Of a stretch of DNA of 64,000 bases, positions 8,135 through 49,672 are shown one piece after another. The first letter of the stretch is position 1; every line of letters begins with the position of its first letter. The notes under the pieces were generated by a model. The model was not told the DNA's origin and did not search any database. It saw only the letters and a program-made list of their open reading frames with translations. Source of the stretch: an uncultured delta proteobacterium (GTDB lineage: Bacteria; Desulfobacterota; Desulfobacteria; Desulfobacterales; B30-G6); contig CAWGLD010000001.1 of assembly GCA_963823335.1 (NCBI GenBank), forward strand, positions 1,696,001 through 1,760,000, written 5' to 3'. A program made the position numbers and the translations under genes.

Positions 8135-8674
8135 ATGGAGTCATATATGCCCATACCCATCCTATCCATTGTCAGTAAAAAGAATTGCGGCAAGACCACC
8201 TTGCTCGAAAAACTTATTCCGGAGTTGAAGCGGCGGGGGTATCGTGTGGGTACGCTCAAGCACGATATCCATGGTTTCGACATCGATCACGAAGGCAAGG
8301 ATACCTTTCGGCACAAGGCTGCCGGAGCAGATGTCGTTGCCATTTCCTGTCCCTGGAAGGTGTCCGTCATCAAGGATGTTGTGCAAGAACTGACACCGCA
8401 GCAGATCGTCGAGCAATATTTCGAGGATGTGGATATTGTTTTGACGGAGGGATACAAACGAGCGAAATTACCCCAGGTCGAGGTTTTTCGCAAGCAGGCC
8501 CACCATCAACCCATCCATACTAAGGATCAACCCAAAACCCTTATTGCCCTGGTGTCTGATGTGCCCCTGGACCTGGGCGTACCCCATATCGATATCAACG
8601 ATTTCAAAGCACTGGCAGACCTGATAGAAAAACGGTTTTTAAAAAATCCGTCTCAGAACAGCAAGTCGGTCTGA
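8135..8674 (+). CDS. mobB: Molybdopterin-guanine dinucleotide biosynthesis protein B
   Basis: GKTTLLEKLI, KHD.HGFDIDHEGKDT and EGYK motifs. Confidence 0.95.
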   Translation: MESYMPIPILSIVSKKNCGKTTLLEKLIPELKRRGYRVGTLKHDIHGFDIDHEGKDTFRHKAAGADVVAISCPWKVSVIKDVVQELTPQQIVEQYFEDVDIVLTEGYKRAKLPQVEVFRKQAHHQPIHTKDQPKTLIALVSDVPLDLGVPHIDINDFKALADLIEKRFLKNPSQNSKSV

Positions 8675-8679
8675 GTGCC

Positions 8680-8746
8680 TGCCATTTCGGCGAAGGCGGG
8701 AATCCAGCCGGCCTTTTTCCAGACGCCCGCTTTCGCGGGAGTGACA
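8680..8746. repeat. Family D palindromic repeat (ATTCCCGC..GCGGGAAT type)
   Basis: GGCGAAGGCGGGAATCCAG...CCCGCTTTCGCGGGAGTGAC; related copies at 17471-17523 and 32747-32810. Confidence 0.7.
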
Positions 8747-8783
8747 ATTGAAGAACCCCGCAGCATGCGAAGCACTAATTATT

Positions 8784-8929
8784 GAGAAACGCTCTAAAAA
8801 ATAGGATTTTGGCTCAAGGACAAGGCGGACGAGCGTTTCAACCCACAGGAATACTTTTGTATTTCGAGGAGTTGGAACGTGAGCCCAACGCAGAGAGTGA
8901 GCCAAAAGATATTTTTACGAATGCTTCTC
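8784..8929 (+). mobile_element. 146-bp MITE-like element, family A, copy 2 (overlaps the carB stop)
   Basis: Shared core CAAGGCGG..TTCAACCCACAGGAATAC..GTATTTCGAGGAGTTG..CAACGCAGA; degenerate TIRs. Confidence 0.75.
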
Positions 8930-11900
8930 GTAGTATTCCTGCAGGCAGTTATAGGTCATGGGCTGCTGACGCATCATTTTCAGACCACGTACGATGGCTT
9001 CGGCCGCGGACAGGGTGGTGATGACCGGAACCCGGTATTTGGTGGCAGCCCACCCGATGGCGAATTCATCGGAGCGGGCCCGCTGGCCCAAAGGGGTATT
9101 GATGATCAGATCGATACTGCGGTTCTTGATGTCGTCCACCACATTGGGCCGACCTTCGCTGGCTTTCAAAACTTCTGTTACGGCAATGCCCCTGTCGGCG
9201 ATGTAGGTCGCCGTTCCCCTGGTGGCCACCAGCTTGTAATTCATCTTCTGCAGACCGGCGGCAATGGGCACGATTCGCGGTTTGTCATTGTCGTTGACGC
9301 TCAGGAACACGGTGCCGGATTCGGGCACGGTGATACCGCTGGATAGAAAGGCCTTCATGACAGCCTCGCTGAAGGTCGGTGCTATGCCCATGACCTCGCC
9401 GGTGGACCGCATTTCCGGACGCAGGTATATATCGGCCTTGTCAAAGCGCTCAAAGGGGAAAACAGATTCCTTGACGGCGACATAGGCCGGTCGATCCCGA
9501 AAACTGACCTTGAACCGCTCTAACGATTGACCGGCCATGACCTTGACGGCAACCTTGGCAATGGGATTTCCCGTAGCCTTACTGACAAACGGGATCGTTC
9601 TGGATGCCCGGGGGTTGACCTCGAGGACATAGAGCGTATCGAACAGGATCGCAAACTGAATGTTGATCAGGCCCTTTACTTTCAGGGCCTTGGCCAGCAG
9701 GCGGGTATATTCCTTGATATCCTGCAACTGGTTCATGCTCAAAAGATAGGGCGGCAGGACAGCCATACTGTCACCGGAGTGTACGCCCGCTTCTTCAATA
9801 TGCTGCATGATGCCGCAGATTTTCGTGATTTTGCCGTCGGATACGGCATCGACATCAAACTCGTAGGCATCCTCAAGGAATCGATCCAGCAAAACAGGGT
9901 GTTCCTCAGAAGCGCTGACGGCATTTTGCATGTACTGTTTCAGGGATTCGGTGTTATAGACAATTTCCATGGCCCGGCCTCCCAGAACATACGAGGGCCT
10001 GACAACCAGCGGGAATCCGATTTTGTGACCCACATGCATGGCAGCGTCGATAGAGGTGGCAGTTCCATATTGAGGGTGCGGAATGTCCATTGAATCCAGG
10101 AGAGCCCCGAAACGATCACGATCTTCCGCCAGGTCGATGGAATCCGGTGATGTACCCCAGATCGGCACACCCGCTTTTTCCAGGGCCAGGGCCAGCTTCA
10201 AGGGTGTCTGCCCTCCGAACTGAACGATGACACCCAACGGTTTTTCGAGTTCGATCACATCCAGGACATCTTCATAGGTCAAGGGTTCGAAATAGAGCTT
10301 GTCAGCCACATCGTAGTCCGTGCTGACGGTCTCCGGATTACAGTTGATCATAATAGCTTCGATTCCCAGTTCTTTCAGGGCCAGGATGCCGTGAACACAG
10401 CAATAATCGAATTCAATCCCCTGGCCTATGCGATTGGGACCGCCGCCTAGAATGATGACCTTATTGTTTTCTGAAGGAATGGACTCATTCTCGGGATCAT
10501 AGGTGGAATAATAATAGGGTGTAAAGGATTCGAATTCGGCCGCACAGGTGTCCACGATTTTATAGGCGGGCAGCACGCCCTTTTCTTTGCGCAGGCTGCG
10601 AATATCAAGCTCGGTCTTACCGGTCAGCAGGGAGAGGTGCTTGTCAGAAAAACCAAAGCGCTTGGCTTTTCTGAGAGTTTCCGGTGCAAAGGTCTGGAGC
10701 TCTTTATAGGTTTGGGACAGGTGCTTTTCAACGTCGACCAGCTGTTGAAGATTTTCCAGGAACCAGATATCGATGCCGGATACGGTCGATATTTCCTTGG
10801 GGCTGATGCCGTTGAAGAGGGCTTGCCAGATCTTCAGGATACGATCCGGTGTTCCCCATCTCAGGTCATCCATCAAATCATCATGGGTGAGCTGGTCGTA
10901 AGAGAAGTTCCCATGGGCATGAAAACCCGACCAGCCGTTTTCAAGGGACCGCAGGGTCTTGTTCAAAGCCTCTTTGAAGGTCCGACCGATGCCCATGGCT
11001 TCACCCACCGACTTCATCTGCGACGTCAGGCGGTGGTCGTTCCCGGGGAATTTTTCGAAGTCCCATCGGGGGATCTTGACCACAACATAATCGATGGCGG
11101 GTTCAAAACAGGCCGGTGTTTTTCTGGTAATATCATTGGGAATTTCATCCAGGTGGTATCCGATGGCGAGCTTGGCGGCAATCTTGGCAATGGGAAACCC
11201 GGTGGCTTTGGATGCCAGGGCGGAGCTTCGGGATACCCGTGGGTTCATTTCGATGACCACCATTTCACCGGTTTTCGGGTTGAGCCCGAACTGGATATTG
11301 GCCCCTCCGGTTTCAACACCGATTCTGGTCACGATTATTTTGGCTGCATCCCGCATGGCCTGGTATTCCGCATCGGTCAAGGTCTGGGCCGGGGCAACCG
11401 TGATGCTGTCTCCCGTATGAATGCCCATGGGGTCGAAATTTTCGATGGAACACACGATCACAAAATTATCGGCCGCATCCCGCATGACTTCCAGTTCGTA
11501 TTCTTTCCATCCCAGGATGGACTGTTCGATCAAAATTTCCTTGACCGGGCTGGCGTTCAGCCCCCACTGGGCTGCCTGGGGAAATTCTTCTTTGTTGTAG
11601 ACAACACTTCCGCCGATACCTCCGAGGGTGAACGCAGGTCTGATGATCAGCGGAAAACCGATGGTGGCGGCCAGTTTCTCTGCCTCCTCCATGGTGTGTA
11701 CGCAGCCCCCATCGGGAACGTTCAGACCGATCTCCTTCATGGCATTGCGAAAAAGATCCCTGTCTTCCGCCAGTTGGATGGTTTCCAGATTGGCGCCGAT
11801 GAGTTCTACACCGTACCGATCCAGGACCCCGCTTTGGGCCAGCTCGACGGCCAGGTTCAGACTGGTTTGACCACCGATTGTGGGCAGCAGCGCATCAGGG

Positions 11901-12145
11901 CGTTCTTTTTCGATGATTTTGGCGATGACATCGGCCTGTAAGGGTTCGATATACGTTCGATCCGAAAATTCCGGGTCCGTCATGATGGTGGCGGGATTGT
12001 TGTTGATCAGAATGACGATAAACCCCTCTTCCCGGAGGGCTTTACAGGCCTGGGTGCCGGAATAATCAAATTCGCAGGCTTGCCCGATGACAATGGGGCC
12101 GGATCCGATGACCAATATTCGTTTTAGATCTTTACGTTTTGGCAT
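8915..12145 (-). CDS. carB: Carbamoyl-phosphate synthase large subunit
   Basis: MPKR...[17 protein letters not shown]; duplicated ATP-grasp domains; 1076 aa. Confidence 0.99.
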
Positions 12146-13244
12146 GGAATTGTTTCATTTCCTCTACAAATTGTTTGAAAAGATAGCGACTGTCGTTGGG
12201 CCCGGGCGATGCCTCGGGGTGATATTGTACCGAGAAGGCCGGCAGGTGTTTGTGTCTGAGACCCTCGAGGGTATTGTCGTTCAAATTGATGTGGGTGATT
12301 TCAATTTCCTCCCGGGGCAGGCTTTCAATATCGACATTGAAGCCATGGTTCTGGGAGGTGATCTCCACCGCCCCGGTGTGCAGGTTTTTTACCGGATGAT
12401 TGGCACCGTGGTGACCGAACTTCAGCTTGACGGTTTTGGCCCCCATAGCCAGGGATAGGATTTGATGCCCCAGACAGATGCCGAAGATGGGTATCCGTCC
12501 CAGAAGATAGCGTGCTGCCGCCACTGCGTATGTCACCGGTTCGGGGTCGCCGGGTCCATTGGAAAAAAAGATGCCATCCGGTTTCCAGGCCAGGATTTCT
12601 TCCGGTGGCGTGTGGGCCGGAAAGATGCGCAACTTGCAGCCGTGATCGTGAAGCGCCCTCAAAATCGAAAACTTGACGCCGAAGTCATAAACGGCCACCC
12701 GGTGGTTGTGTGGGCCGGTTTTGTCGCCAGGGTCTTCAAGGGGCCAGGCATAACTTTCATTGGTGGTAATTTCCTGAACGATATCCCTGCCAACCAGCTG
12801 TTTACTGTCCGCCAGTTGTTTGGCAAGGGCCGACAAGGGTTCATCAGAGGTGGTGATCAGGCCCATTTGAGAGCCATGGTCCCTCAGGTGCCGGGTGATG
12901 GCCCGGGTATCCACATCGCTGATCCCGCCTACACCATGGTGGGTCAAATATTCATCCAGGGATCTGTCGGCTTGCCAGTGACTGACAACCGGGCTGTATT
13001 CCCGAATGATGAAACCTGAGGCGTAGATACGTCGGGATTCAAAATCCATTGGATTGACGCCGTAATTTCCTATCTGGGGGTAGGTCATGACCACCATCTG
13101 AAAATGGTAGGAGGGATCGGTCAGGATTTCCTGATATCCCATCATGGCTGTATTAAAAACCACTTCTCCGATGGCGGTTCCCTCGGCCCCCAGGGAAAGA
13201 CCTTCAAAACAGGTGCCGTCTGCCAGTAGTAGTCTTGCTTTCAT
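12132..13244 (-). CDS. carA: Carbamoyl-phosphate synthase small subunit
   Basis: GEVVFNT, SNGPGDP, GICLGHQ and QYHPE motifs. Confidence 0.99.
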
Positions 13245-13286
13245 AGTTTTATATTCTCTACTTTACGAATCTGCCCTTTTAGGTGT

Positions 13287-13344
13287 TTAGACTGTCAGGC
13301 TGTTAGACTGTTAGCCGCTAACAGTCTAACAGCCTACAGCCTAA
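13287..13344. repeat. Long hairpin built from inverted octamer tandem repeats
   Basis: TTAGACTG TCAGGCTG TTAGACTG TTAG followed by its near-perfect reverse complement. Confidence 0.8.
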
Positions 13345-13362
13345 CCTCCTTGTGTTTCGATA

Positions 13363-14622
13363 TTAATCTCTCTTGAATTTACTGTAATCCGGCTGACGAT
13401 ACCGGCTTTCACCGCTGCCCTCGATGTCCAGAAGTGCCTCCACCTTCAAGGGCAGACCGAACAGCTGAATAAAGCCGTGGGCATCCTGTTGGTTGTAGAC
13501 ATTGTCTTCCCCAAAGGAAGCGTAATCCTCGCGATACAGGCTGAAAGGACTTTTGCGGCCTGCAATGGTAGCATTGCCCTTGTATAGTTTCATGCGGACC
13601 GTTCCCGTAATCTTATGCTGGGTTGTCTTTACAAAAGCATCCAGGGCTTCCCGAAGCTGCATGAACCACATGCCGTTGTAGACCAGTTCTGCATATTTGA
13701 CGGATACGAAGTCTTTATAGTGCATGGTGTACTTGTCCAGGCAGATACTTTCGAGGGCCTGGTGCGCGCGGTATATGACGGTGCCTGCCGGTGTTTCGTA
13801 AATGCCGCGGCTTTTCATTCCCACCAGACGGTTTTCGACAATATCCACCCGACCGACACCGTGCTGACCGGCAATCGAATTTAAACGGGTGAAAAGTTCC
13901 AGGGCGTTCAGCTTTTCGCCATCAAGGGCAACCGGGTTTCCCTTGTTGAACCCGATTTCAATATAAACGGGTTTATCGGGTGCATCTTCAGGGCTGACCG
14001 TCAATTGAAACATCTCCTTGGCAGGTTCGTTCCAGGGATCTTCGAGGAGACCCCCTTCATGGGAGAGATGGAAAATGTTGCGGTCGCGGCTGTAAATGTC
14101 CTTTTCTGTCTGCTGGATGGGAATGTTGTACTTGATGGCGTATTTGATAGCGTCTTCACGGCTCTTGATTTCCCATTCGCGCCAGGGGGCGATGACCTTC
14201 AATTTTGGGTTCAGGGCCATGATGGTCAACTCAAATCTTACCTGGTCGTTGCCTTTCCCGGTACAGCCGTGGGAAACAGCATCAGCCCCTTCGGCCTCGG
14301 CGACATCCACCAGTTTTTTGGCGATCAGCGGTCGGGCAATAGACGTGCCTAACAGGTACTCGCGTTCGTATACCGCACCGGCCTGCATGGTCGGGAACAC
14401 GTAGTCCACCAGAAATTCTTCGCGCAGATCCATCACCACCAGCTTGCTCGCACCAGATGCAATGGCTTTTTCTTCCAGACCGTGCAACTCTTCATCTTGT
14501 CCCAGGTCGGCAGCGAAGCAGATGACTTCGCAATTTCCATAGTTGTTCTTGAGCCAGGGTACGATCACCGAGGTATCCAGTCCTCCGCTGTAGGCCAGGA
14601 CGACTTTTTTAACCGTTGTCAT
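13363..14622 (-). CDS. argG: Argininosuccinate synthase
   Basis: [22 protein letters not shown] and [16 protein letters not shown] motifs. Confidence 0.99.
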
Positions 14623-14639
14623 GATTGCTGCTCCTTTTC

Positions 14640-14674
14640 AAAAAAAAAACCCGGCAATTGCCGGGGGTTTTTGT
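14640..14674 (-). terminator. Attenuator terminator upstream of argG
   Basis: CCCGGC-AATT-GCCGGG hairpin followed by 10 U on the minus strand, just before the argG RBS. Confidence 0.9.
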
Positions 14675-14693
14675 ACTTTTTGGATTTCTACCA

Positions 14694-14780
14694 TTATTCG
14701 TATTTCCACAAAAAACACCCGGGCAGTAAAAGGGTACGACAACGTCGGCGGGTGAAGTTTTGGATCTTATCGGGTGTCAT
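14694..14780 (-). CDS. Putative arginine attenuator leader peptide MTPDKIQNFTRRRCRTLLLPGCFLWKYE
   Basis: AGGAAGG RBS; CGC CGA CGT TGT CGT Arg cluster; ORF overlaps the antiterminator strand. Confidence 0.8.
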   Translation of the reverse strand: MTPDKIQNFTRRRCRTLLLPGCFLWKYE

Positions 14781-14812
14781 GCTGCCTTCCTGACTGAGAT
14801 TAAATCTGGCGC

Positions 14813-14841
14813 AATATGTCAAAAAAGAAAAATCCTGTCAA
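14813..14841 (-). promoter_or_regulatory. Sigma70 promoter of the leader-argG-carAB transcript
   Basis: TTGACA (14841-14836), 17-nt spacer, TGn-CATATT extended -10. Confidence 0.7.
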
Positions 14842-14884
14842 CCATGAAATATATAGGAAGTGCTAAGTGATCTAACGTTGATCC

Positions 14885-14946
14885 AGCACAGAGCTTCAGC
14901 TCTGCTCGTAGACCTTTATTTTTGCAGGTCTGAAGACCTGCGCTAC
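14885..14946. repeat. GTAG-type REP pair downstream of argB
   Basis: AGCACAGAGCTTCAGCTCTGCT and GCAGGTCTGAAGACCTGCGCTAC; compensatory variants of the 7994 REP. Confidence 0.65.
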
Positions 14947-14988
14947 ATTACATGGAAAAACCAGCGCCGGCACACCGGGTATGGGTGT

Positions 14989-15792
14989 CTATCGTTTCAG
15001 GAGCGTGCCGGAGCGGCATTCACCGGCTACAATTTCCTGCAGGGTGGCAATACCTGCCCATTGGATAATGTAAACGGCAGGCACCTGATTTGCCAGCGCT
15101 TTGAACGCCGACGTCATTTTCGCCAGCATGCCTCCCTTGATGGTGCCGTCGGCAATGCGTTCCCGGGCCTGCTGTTCGGAAAGGGTCCGGCAGACAGTCT
15201 CGCCGTCTATGACACCAGGAACATCCGTGATGAACACAAGCCCCATACAGCCGATTTTCGCAGCCAGGGCTGCTGCGGCACTGTCTGCATTGACATTGAA
15301 GCTGCGCTGGTTTTCATCCCCGGAGATGGGTGAAATAACCGGTACACGACCTTTCTTGAGGGCGCGCAGGACAACCTCACCATTGATCTGTTTGATGTCG
15401 CCCACAAATCCATACTGCCTGCCGTCACGGGTCATGGGCTTCACTACAAAGAGCTGTTCGGTTTTCCCAGACATGCGTTGACAGGAGACACCGTTATCCG
15501 TCAGCCAGGACGCGATACGCGTGTTGATGGTTTCGGAGAGAACTTCTTCAATGATGGTCATGTCCTCGGCCTGGGTGACCCTGATGCCATCGATAAACAG
15601 GGTCTCACGGCCATGATCTTGCAGGGCTTTCGATATCTCGGCCCCCCCCCCATGTACGATGATCGTCTCGATATCGGGAACGGCTCTGATAGCCTGGGCC
15701 AGTTCGCGGAAACCGGATTCTTTTTCAAATGCACGCCCACCGATTTTAATCAGCAGTCTGGGGTTCGAGGATTTCAGGTTTCTTGGGCTCAT
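14989..15792 (-). CDS. argB: Acetylglutamate kinase
   Basis: IKIGG, IVHGGG, DGIRVT, NVNAD, TDVPGV and GGMLAK motifs. Confidence 0.93.
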   Translation of the reverse strand: MSPRNLKSSNPRLLIKIGGRAFEKESGFRELAQAIRAVPDIETIIVHGGGAEISKALQDHGRETLFIDGIRVTQAEDMTIIEEVLSETINTRIASWLTDNGVSCQRMSGKTEQLFVVKPMTRDGRQYGFVGDIKQINGEVVLRALKKGRVPVISPISGDENQRSFNVNADSAAAALAAKIGCMGLVFITDVPGVIDGETVCRTLSEQQARERIADGTIKGGMLAKMTSAFKALANQVPAVYIIQWAGIATLQEIVAGECRSGTLLKR

Positions 15793-16099
15793 TGAGTTTC
15801 TTGGGCTATTGGGTTGCTTACGGCTGTTGGCGGTCGTTTTATCTGTCTATATTATCATCGATCATTAGCAAACGCCAGCCCTATAACTGTTGTCATAACA
15901 TGTTCTTTTGGACGTTATTTGCCGGAGCGGTTTCGGATCGTTTTTCTGACAAACGCTCTAAAAAAACTCAACAAACCCAATGAACTCAACGAACAAAGAA
16001 TTTCTCGAATCTTTATGTGTCTTTTGTATTTAAAGTTTCCACGGATGTCAAAGCAGGCTTTCTTTCGAAAGACATTTCTGATAATGACGATACTTGTAT

Positions 16100-16245
16100 T
16101 AGAACCCATCTCAAAAATAAGATTTTGTCCCAAGGTCAAGGCGGTCTCGAGTTTCAACCCGCAGGAATACTGTTGTATTTTGAGGAGTTGAAACGAGAGA
16201 GCAACACAGAAATTGGGACAAAAGACATTTTTGAGATAGGTTATG
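16100..16245 (+). mobile_element. 146-bp MITE-like element, family A, copy 3
   Basis: TAGAACCCATCTCAAAAAT...ATTTTTGAGATAGGTT TIRs; same core as the other copies. Confidence 0.8.
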
Positions 16246-16271
16246 GATAATGTGTACTCAAGGAGAATAAG

Positions 16272-17354
16272 ATGAAAAAATTTGCCGAGACCACCCAGCA
16301 AACCTACGAGGGATGGAAAGAATTTTACGAAAAGCCTGCCGATGAAAAGAACCGGTTTTTCCAGTCGGGCGGTAGATTGATCGACATTATATTTGCTCAG
16401 CAGTTTGACAGATCTTTTTTAGATCGCATGAGCCGGCTGGGGGATATGATTCGACTGCTGGCGAAAACCAAGCTGGGCCAGAACCATCTCAGGCATCTTT
16501 TGCCGCATAAAAGGGCCATGCTGTATTTTTCTCAGCCGTCGACCCGAACGTTTCTTTCATTCCAAAACGCCTGTCACATGCTGGGGCTGAGCGTGTCTGA
16601 AATCCGTGGAACCACCACCAGTTCAGAGGTGAAGGGTGAATCACAGGAGGATACGATACGGACGTTTGCCAGTTATGTGGACCTGATTATTTCACGGCAT
16701 CCGGAAGCCGGATTTGCTGAAAAGACAGCCTGGGTCCTGAATCAAACCGACCGGGCGGTACCTGTTATCAATGGCGGATCAGGACCTGATCAACATCCCA
16801 CCCAGGCGCTGCTGGATATTTACACCCTCGAACGGGAGTTCAGCAAGAACGGCGGATTGGACGGTAAAAAAATTGCCATGGTGGGTGATTTGAAGAGAGG
16901 TAGAACCGTTCGTTCCTTGAGTTATCTGATGAAAAATTATCGGGATGTCGAGCTATATTTCGCTGCTCCGGAAATTTATAAGATGAAAGACGATATCACG
17001 TCTTTCTTGACACGTCATCACATCCCCTACCATGAGACCGAAGACTTTGAAAGTATCATGCCGCTGGTGGATGCCATATACATGACCCGAATTCAGAACG
17101 AATATTCGGAGGACCCAGCCCATGAAGCGGAAACCTATCCTGCTTTTCATTTCAAGAAGGAGCACCTTGACAATATCCAGGCGCACTGTGTCATTCTGCA
17201 CCCGCTGCCCCGGCGCTATGAGATCGATGTGGCCGTGGACAAGGATCCCCGGGCAGCCTATTGGCGGCAGGAACGCAACGGCATGTGGATCCGGGCGGCC
17301 TTGATTGCCTATCTCTTCAAGGTCGAGAGCGAGATTGTGGATGTGTTTTCCTGA
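16272..17354 (+). CDS. pyrB: Aspartate carbamoyltransferase catalytic subunit
   Basis: PSTRT, KGES, HPTQALLD, GDLKRGRTVRSL, TRIQ and HPLPR motifs; AAGGAG RBS. Confidence 0.92.
   Translation: MKKFAETTQQTYEGWKEFYEKPADEKNRFFQSGGRLIDIIFAQQFDRSFLDRMSRLGDMIRLLAKTKLGQNHLRHLLPHKRAMLYFSQPSTRTFLSFQNACHMLGLSVSEIRGTTTSSEVKGESQEDTIRTFASYVDLIISRHPEAGFAEKTAWVLNQTDRAVPVINGGSGPDQHPTQALLDIYTLEREFSKNGGLDGKKIAMVGDLKRGRTVRSLSYLMKNYRDVELYFAAPEIYKMKDDITSFLTRHHIPYHETEDFESIMPLVDAIYMTRIQNEYSEDPAHEAETYPAFHFKKEHLDNIQAHCVILHPLPRRYEIDVAVDKDPRAAYWRQERNGMWIRAALIAYLFKVESEIVDVFS

Positions 17355-49595: not shown

Positions 49596-49672
<77 letters not shown>

Follow-up and report, generated by a model that had tools for sequence, protein, structure and literature searches.

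The classical attenuators of the trp, his, leu, thr, phe and ilv operons share a promoter, a short open reading frame (ORF) with a cluster of codons for the end product, in which the position of the ribosome serves as the sensor, mutually exclusive antiterminator and terminator hairpins, and an intrinsic terminator just before the first structural gene. To our knowledge, the amino acids usually listed as governed by leader-peptide attenuation do not include arginine, whose biosynthesis is a textbook case of repression by ArgR. This DNA-binding protein senses free arginine and, together with the ARG boxes, constitutes the usual bacterial arginine control. We analysed a stretch of 64,000 nucleotides (the window) from an uncultured, sulfate-reducer-type member of the Desulfobacterales (assembly GCA_963823335.1, contig CAWGLD010000001.1, positions 1,696,001 to 1,760,000), which carries a leader of ∼200 nt with the classical layout directly upstream of argG. 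The leader is a real and conserved element. The comparative sequence evidence makes it very probable (roughly 0.8) that it acts as an arginine-sensing, ribosome-mediated leader-peptide attenuator of argG-carA-carB.

Several other systems resemble this locus in part. As with ArgR, arginine would feed back on arginine biosynthesis and carAB; in contrast to the ArgR systems, searches for ArgR in this genome and in 151 genomes sampled from the order found none. A T-box would likewise sense tRNA-Arg charging and take a terminator/antiterminator decision, but it binds uncharged tRNA directly and needs no translation. In the accessible part of a 2005 survey, the RNA control of arginine genes is assigned to T-boxes, and attenuators are listed for histidine, threonine and phenylalanine alone (PMC1262725). 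According to the available portion of the report on Salmonella speF, pausing at consecutive Arg codons of the upstream ORF orf34 reports arginine supply and redirects mRNA folding. The outputs described in that portion are different, namely Rho termination, RNase G decay and access to the ribosome-binding site (RBS) of ornithine decarboxylase, not an intrinsic terminator before arginine-biosynthesis genes (PMC6386406). The cysteine-rich, leaderless short ORF attenuators of mycobacteria also use end-product codon runs outside the classical amino-acid set; as far as the accessible text goes, they differ in amino acid, phylum and apparently output (bioRxiv 10.1101/834739). No description of an Arg leader attenuator for arginine biosynthesis was found in the full-text literature, a scope that leaves aside subscription journals and supplements. 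This agrees with the preliminary description of the locus, whose author knew of no well-characterised classical Arg leader attenuator.

The elements of the leader are given below in the numbering of the window and in minus-strand reading order.

14813..14841, minus strand: promoter of the leader transcript, with −35 box TTGACA (14841-14836), 17-nt spacer and TG-extended −10 box CATATT (14818-14813)
14785..14791, minus strand: Shine-Dalgarno (SD) sequence of the leader ORF, AGGAAGG
14694..14780, minus strand: leader ORF of 28 codons, ATG at 14780, encoding the peptide MTPDKIQNFTRRRCRTLLLPGCFLWKYE followed by the stop codon
14749..14754, minus strand: region 1, CACCCG, overlapping the first Arg codon, with its complement CGGGTG in region 2; possible anti-antiterminator suggested by the folds
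14736..14750, minus strand: candidate regulatory Arg codons CGC CGA CGT (TGT) CGT, four Arg in five codons
14708..14726, minus strand: region 2, CTGCCCGGGTGTTTTTTGT, inside the ORF; predicted 5′ strand of the antiterminator (folds and comparative pairing)
14659..14674, minus strand: region 3, ACAAAAACCCCCGGCA, predicted 3′ strand of the antiterminator and 5′ arm of the terminator (folds and comparative pairing)
14640..14665, minus strand: intrinsic terminator, stem-loop CCCGGC-AATT-GCCGGG (14665-14650) followed by T10 (14649-14640); top terminator-like site, −11.9 kcal/mol
14631..14636, minus strand: SD sequence of argG, AAGGAG (14636-14631), 4 nt after the U run; the argG ATG is at 14622

The promoter, RBS, Arg-rich ORF and terminator with U10 had all been named in the preliminary description and are all present. 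The promoter, of strong sigma-70 type, is the top promoter-like site within 8500-16500, matching at 10 of 12 positions. Region 2 begins 10 nt after the last Arg codon, and 17 nt separate the last U of the tail from the argG ATG. This interval is too short to hold a promoter, which means that argG can be expressed only by read-through. The leader thus has what characterises ribosome-mediated attenuators: an ORF with a start codon and an RBS, a cluster of codons for the product and an intrinsic terminator before argG. Geometry, energies and partial covariation further point to an antiterminator in which the 5′ arm of the terminator is one of the two strands and which a stalled ribosome would leave free to form. 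The locus differs from the classical examples in its amino acid (arginine), its genes (argG-carAB) and its hosts (Desulfobacterales and Chloroflexota), and it has no sequence or Rfam-model similarity to them. Its stop codon lies ∼10 nt beyond region 2, not inside or before it.

On the best reading of these elements, the signal sensed would be charged tRNA-Arg, as in attenuators of the trp and his type. Transcription would start at the conserved promoter, and a ribosome would translate the 28-codon leader. When Arg-tRNA is plentiful, the ribosome would pass the Arg codons and occupy region 2 while the polymerase makes regions 3 and 4; with region 2 occupied, the terminator hairpin with its U10 would form and transcription would stop short of argG, 17 nt ahead of its start codon. 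Under a shortage of Arg-tRNA, the ribosome would stall at codons 11-15 and leave region 2 free to capture region 3 on its emergence, before the 3′ arm of the terminator is made, and the polymerase would read through into argG-carAB. A ribosome with codons 11-13 in its A site protects ∼12-14 nt downstream, and region 2 would therefore be free during a stall at these codons. If the leader were not translated, region 1 could pair with region 2, and termination would again be favoured.

Conservation of the Arg-rich ORF was assessed in argG loci from 40 relatives and in 80 loci of a species-level genome collection; 110 loci were fetched, with some genomes represented twice. We scored ATG-started ORFs of 8-40 amino acids, at most 400 nt upstream of argG, that contain at least four Arg in a window of six residues. 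Such an ORF was found in 54 of the 103 loci with full upstream sequence, compared with 48 of 2,060 mononucleotide shuffles and 9 of 103 reverse complements. Under the same criterion, runs of any other amino acid never exceeded 5 of the 103 argG loci. The leader is present in all ten argG orthologues at 85-100% ArgG identity (their peptides include MISETTQNRTRRRRRIRLLPGCFLWKYK) and in many more distant loci, so the Arg-codon cluster that the preliminary description had asked to be sought in orthologous leaders is there. After removal of duplicates, the 110 loci yielded 53 distinct leader candidates, 49 of them with a hairpin and a T-run. Further out, at 53-58% identity, 20 argG loci of the order gave no convincing leader; in several of these, another coding region directly precedes argG, so that any leader there would lie elsewhere.

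Thirty-six of the related leaders are of the Desulfobacterales type. Their ORFs span 24-39 codons, mostly 28-30, with 4-10 Arg each, and the indels in their alignment are threes and sixes, preserving the frame. The Arg codons undergo synonymous CGN changes between relatives; of the 326 Arg codons counted in leaders, 244 are CGU or CGC, compared with 36.5% in the long ORFs of this genome. A purine-rich, SD-like word precedes the leader ATG in 20 of the 36 (by a loose regular expression), and the folded terminator hairpin ends 20-38 nt before argG in 26. By eye, the promoter block TTGACA...CATATTGCGCC was recognised in eight of nine loci of the same genus, with locus L007 deviating.

Arg-run leaders also precede the same argG clade in Chloroflexota, where the RNA sequence and the terminator are unrelated to those of the Desulfobacterales type and many Arg leaders are almost leaderless (for example, MRSHTFNRNRRRRNHTA and MFMQRRRTI). 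The ArgG encoded in the window shares 67-81% identity with its counterparts in Anaerolineae and Caldilineae (Chloroflexota) and just 53-58% with those of most other members of its own order and family. These identities point to horizontal transfer of this argG clade, which has Arg leaders in both phyla. In one subclade (loci L037, L042, L056, L060 and L065) the Arg run is itself a perfect hairpin, with RRRYRRR or RRRFRRR encoded as CGTCGCCG-NNN-CGGCGACG; in L037 and L042 the CGTCGCCG...CGGCGACG stem is a perfect 8 bp. This could be a polymerase pause hairpin that the translating ribosome melts.

The conserved Arg codons might instead be an untranslated by-product of a CG-rich helix, within a terminator whose formation depends on the binding of a protein, small ligand or tRNA to the RNA. 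The CGN-rich stretch has its complement in the G-rich region 2 and, as just described, forms a hairpin of its own in one subclade, so an RNA-level constraint on the Arg codons is real; the CGY bias could also reflect pairing. However, an ATG and a stop codon frame the Arg run at a near-constant 28-30 codons with in-frame indels, arginine is the only enriched amino acid, and the run persists in the Chloroflexota leaders despite their unrelated RNA and terminator. Nor was any riboswitch or T-box matched in Rfam searches of 13000-16500 at E values up to 10, and no riboswitch, T-box or leader family reached its threshold in 13 related loci. The best leader match, Leu_leader (RF00512), scored 23.8 bits against a gathering score of 50 and involved the terminator part alone; Phe_leader (RF01859) was also weak. 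We therefore regard control of this kind as quite unlikely.

The element is closely linked to argG. A covariance model built from the 36 Desulfobacterales-type leaders was run over 151 genomes sampled evenly from the order. Ten genomes scored 73-124 bits, the next best score being 41 bits, and each of these ten strong matches includes an Arg-rich ORF and is immediately followed by an argG of the same clade. At 20 weaker loci, no argG was present within 1.5 kb. Although 70 of the 151 genomes matched at E ≤ 0.001, most of these were partial terminator matches and only those of at least 73 bits are real; the seven full-length weak matches that we inspected all fell on the 3′ ends of unrelated genes with terminators, one such end being a GGM-repeat tail. 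The element is single-copy in its own genome, where a scan for an Arg-run ORF followed by a terminator gave four matches, this leader being the only one before an arg gene. Its assignment to argG is thus borne out.

The terminator has strong comparative support. Across the 36 leaders, 98.5% of its cells are paired and 10 cells are compensatory, a result reached by 0 of 500 shuffles, and slid registers were all worse; covariation of the terminator had been set earlier as a check. RNAalifold on the MAFFT alignment recovered the terminator and nothing else. Leader translation could in principle act mainly through Rho-dependent termination, mRNA decay or initiation of argG translation. A precedent is Salmonella speF orf34, for which the accessible part of the report describes pausing at two Arg codons that alters mRNA folding and stability (PMC6386406). 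Also in favour of this route, the argG SD is just 4 nt past the U run. Nevertheless, all 36 related leaders keep a GC-rich stem followed by 9-10 U, which is a canonical intrinsic terminator, and the argG SD lies in no predicted helix of the folds. Both observations make such a route highly improbable.

The preliminary description had also proposed that region 2 is complementary to region 3. The complementary segment exists, although in this genome the pairing is imperfect and consists of two 5-bp blocks and a bulge (−12.8 kcal/mol, RNAduplex). The antiterminator duplex is predicted in all 36 leaders of the Desulfobacterales type, its energy ranging from −12.8 to −26.8 kcal/mol. When 45 leaders were compared with 200 dinucleotide shuffles each, the duplex was equalled by none of the shuffles in 27 leaders and by at most 10 in 38. 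Its distal half varies between relatives (for example, UUGUGG/GUACAA, CUGCGC/CGCACG and UAUGUUGG/CAACAUA), and cognate distal halves pair better than non-cognate ones (mean −6.70 versus −5.44 kcal/mol, reached by 0 of 10,000 permutations). Region 2 also mimics the 3′ arm of the terminator of each clade: GCCGGGGT here, CAGTCGGGAG in L075 and L083, and ACGGGGTT in L073. In an alignment refitted to the model, and in the majority register, 85.3% of antiterminator cells are paired, versus 70.7% and 62.0% for slides of one column, and 19 cells are changed on both sides, versus 6.6 in shuffles. Covariation of the antiterminator is thus borne out in part, by the strong duplexes in relatives and by compensatory changes in the distal half.

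The same segment bears on whether the leader peptide might arrest its own ribosome, sensing free arginine or an intermediate of the pathway from within the tunnel, in the way known from TnaC, SpeFL and the fungal arginine attenuator peptide. In favour of such a mechanism, members of the genus share a well-conserved C-terminal half of the peptide, LLPGCFLWKYK. Across the family, however, the peptide segment varies (AGCLMYCT, PGGFLCLT, GPGVFCVGDA) while the nucleotides GCCGGGTGT stay constant, so conservation is at the RNA level. Moreover, if high arginine stalled the ribosome, the antiterminator would be released and a biosynthetic operon turned on just when its product is plentiful, the reverse of the logic expected. 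We give an arrest peptide very little credence.

Several observations weigh against the attenuator, some of them comparative. Seven of the 45 leaders have no antiterminator better than their shuffles, namely six of the Chloroflexota type, for which the segment taken for the duplex may be wrongly defined, and the leader of this genome itself. In the MAFFT alignment, the fixed-column count for the antiterminator is not significant (75.5% paired versus 74.7% in shuffles, reached by 39 of 500; 74.5% paired at slide +1), because two registers, GCCGGGG and GGCCGGG, coexist. Column support arose only after re-alignment to the model and the change of register; because the refitted alignment is biased towards the structure and includes, among its 44 rows, 2 spurious terminator hits, we count this support as moderate. 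The GC core of the antiterminator is invariant and hence uninformative either way. Pairing of regions 1 and 2 (CACCCG:CGGGUG) appears in folds of this leader, and CAYCCG followed by CGGGKK occurs in 27 of the 36 leaders, but the leader alignment gave the pairing neither covariation support nor a family-wide consensus.

Other points of the same kind concern this particular copy, which is the weakest switch of its genus, with four Arg codons (the fewest of the 36 leaders) and a 6-bp terminator stem. Its antiterminator duplex was equalled by 17 of 200 dinucleotide shuffles, with a short definition of the 3′ partner, and the minimum free energy fold of the whole leader is no better than shuffles (z = 0.21). 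The single-sequence fold does not decide, and the case for more than chance pairing therefore rests on conservation in relatives. In segment folds, the antiterminator before the 3′ arm of the terminator exists reaches −16.7 kcal/mol, versus −11.9 for the terminator hairpin. Once the RNA is full-length, only ∼1 kcal/mol separates the antiterminator state from the terminator state (−21.3 versus −20.4), so the choice would have to be kinetic, as in classical systems. When the ribosome footprint was masked in thermodynamic folds, the terminator persisted in all states because long-range pairing across the ribosome was allowed; these folds were replaced by the segment folds. A ribosome at the stop codon would cover just the last 3-4 nt of region 2; masking would therefore have to occur during transit.

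Parts of the window are contained in 19 metatranscriptome runs, and the contigs of four estuary runs were compared with it. A contig bridges the terminator into argG in each of the four, so that the leader is present in RNA libraries and contiguous with argG. These contigs fit read-through, although contigs cannot show ends or levels and DNA carry-over is possible. Two of them continue ∼100 nt past the −35 box into sequence unlike the window, through DNA carry-over or a strain difference; no transcription start can be derived from them, and DNA may be included. At 14649, all four contig sets have C instead of A (plus strand), which changes GCCGGGU to GCCGGGG in the RNA and adds a seventh base pair to the terminator (seven GC pairs), as in other members of the genus. 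The A in the window may be a strain variant or an assembly error beside the homopolymer.

Contigs that cross the terminator in four of four runs, together with the weak antiterminator of this copy, are also what one would expect if the ORF were an independent small gene, or no gene, and the hairpin a leaky constitutive terminator or an RNA-stability element without arginine-dependent switching. On the other side, the element is found upstream of argG only (the ten strong matches, and the one copy that this genome has), relatives retain the complement of the terminator arm, with partial covariation, and enrichment of Arg codons ahead of an arginine gene is the signature of end-product sensing. 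A hairpin of this passive kind is very unlikely, and we retain the arginine-sensing attenuator as our interpretation.

The genes that this attenuator would control are the following.

13363..14622, minus strand: argG, argininosuccinate synthase, the first structural gene (NF001770, 628 bits)
12132..13244, minus strand: carA, carbamoyl-phosphate synthase small subunit (TIGR01368, 501 bits)
8915..12145, minus strand: carB, carbamoyl-phosphate synthase large subunit, overlapping carA by 14 nt (NF003671, 1638 bits)

In related loci, carAB follows argG in 37 of 80, all 37 of the Desulfobacterales type and some with gaps of just 4-15 nt, and the assembly (93.9% complete) holds one carAB, the sole carbamoyl-phosphate synthetase found. 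The earlier proposal that carAB is arginine-regulated is for these reasons a reasonable one. That the sole enzyme is needed for pyrimidine synthesis too counts, like the points gathered above, against the attenuator, and speaks for considerable basal read-through or for an internal promoter that escaped notice. Pyrimidine supply could be met by read-through or by a promoter within the 118-nt argG-carA spacer; a scan of 8500-16500 for promoter-like sites found none in that spacer.

The spacer itself contains, at 13283-13340 on the minus strand, a long near-perfect inverted repeat, GGCTGTTAGACTGTTAGC GG CTAACAGTCTAACAGCC, with the same words repeated in its flanks and no U run. Rfam gave just weak miRNA-like matches to it, and the contigs of three of the four RNA runs have a 7-nt deletion at 13329. 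The structure may serve RNA processing or stability, or may simply be a repeat. Upstream of the leader lies argB (NCBIfam), with a terminator-like site of its own at 14978-14961. Between this site and the leader promoter (14890-14960, minus strand) are two short hairpins, GCAGGTCTTCAGACCTGC and CAGAGCTGAAGCTCTG, one of which gave a weak Acido-Lenti-1 match (20 bits against a gathering score of 37). Divergent from argB is a pyrB-like aspartate carbamoyltransferase gene (16272-17354, plus strand; TIGR00670, 254 bits against a cut-off of 237), so that arginine and pyrimidine genes drawing on carbamoyl phosphate are clustered here.

We also searched for other means of arginine control. ArgR (TIGR01529, PF02863) had no match in this 93.9% complete genome, and its C-terminal domain (PF02863) was matched in 0 of the 151 genomes of the order, a search whose positive control matched 8 of 14 reference genomes. 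In 141 of the 151 genomes there is neither a strong match to this leader nor a match to ArgR.

ARAGORN called 46 tRNAs in this genome, covering all amino acids. Those for arginine have the anticodons TCG (at 49596-49672), CCT, TCT and CCG only; a tRNA-Arg with anticodon ACG was not found by ARAGORN, which may reflect a gap in the incomplete assembly. CGT and CGC make up 36.5% of the Arg codons of the genome and 75% of those of the leaders. The same program called tRNA-Pyl (CTA) and tRNA-SeC (TCA), an indication that this member of the Desulfobacterales decodes pyrrolysine and selenocysteine.

These observations allow a wider proposal, which we put forward as doubtful. The Arg leader with argG, or argG-carAB, would be a horizontally mobile cassette common to Desulfobacterales and Chloroflexota that replaces the absent ArgR and puts the sole carbamoyl-phosphate synthetase under tRNA-Arg charging. 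It would be sensitised by CGY codons that, with no ACG/ICG tRNA, are read via slow wobble by tRNA-Arg(UCG).

The leader described here belongs to no existing Rfam leader family, and arginine would be an addition to the list of amino acids sensed by leader-peptide attenuators. If the attenuator is what we propose, a conserved element of this type would operate in an order in which none of 151 genomes has a recognisable ArgR, and again in Chloroflexota. It would explain how the arginine pathway is regulated in ArgR-less lineages, and would tie carbamoyl-phosphate synthesis, which is common to pyrimidines, to the charging of tRNA-Arg.

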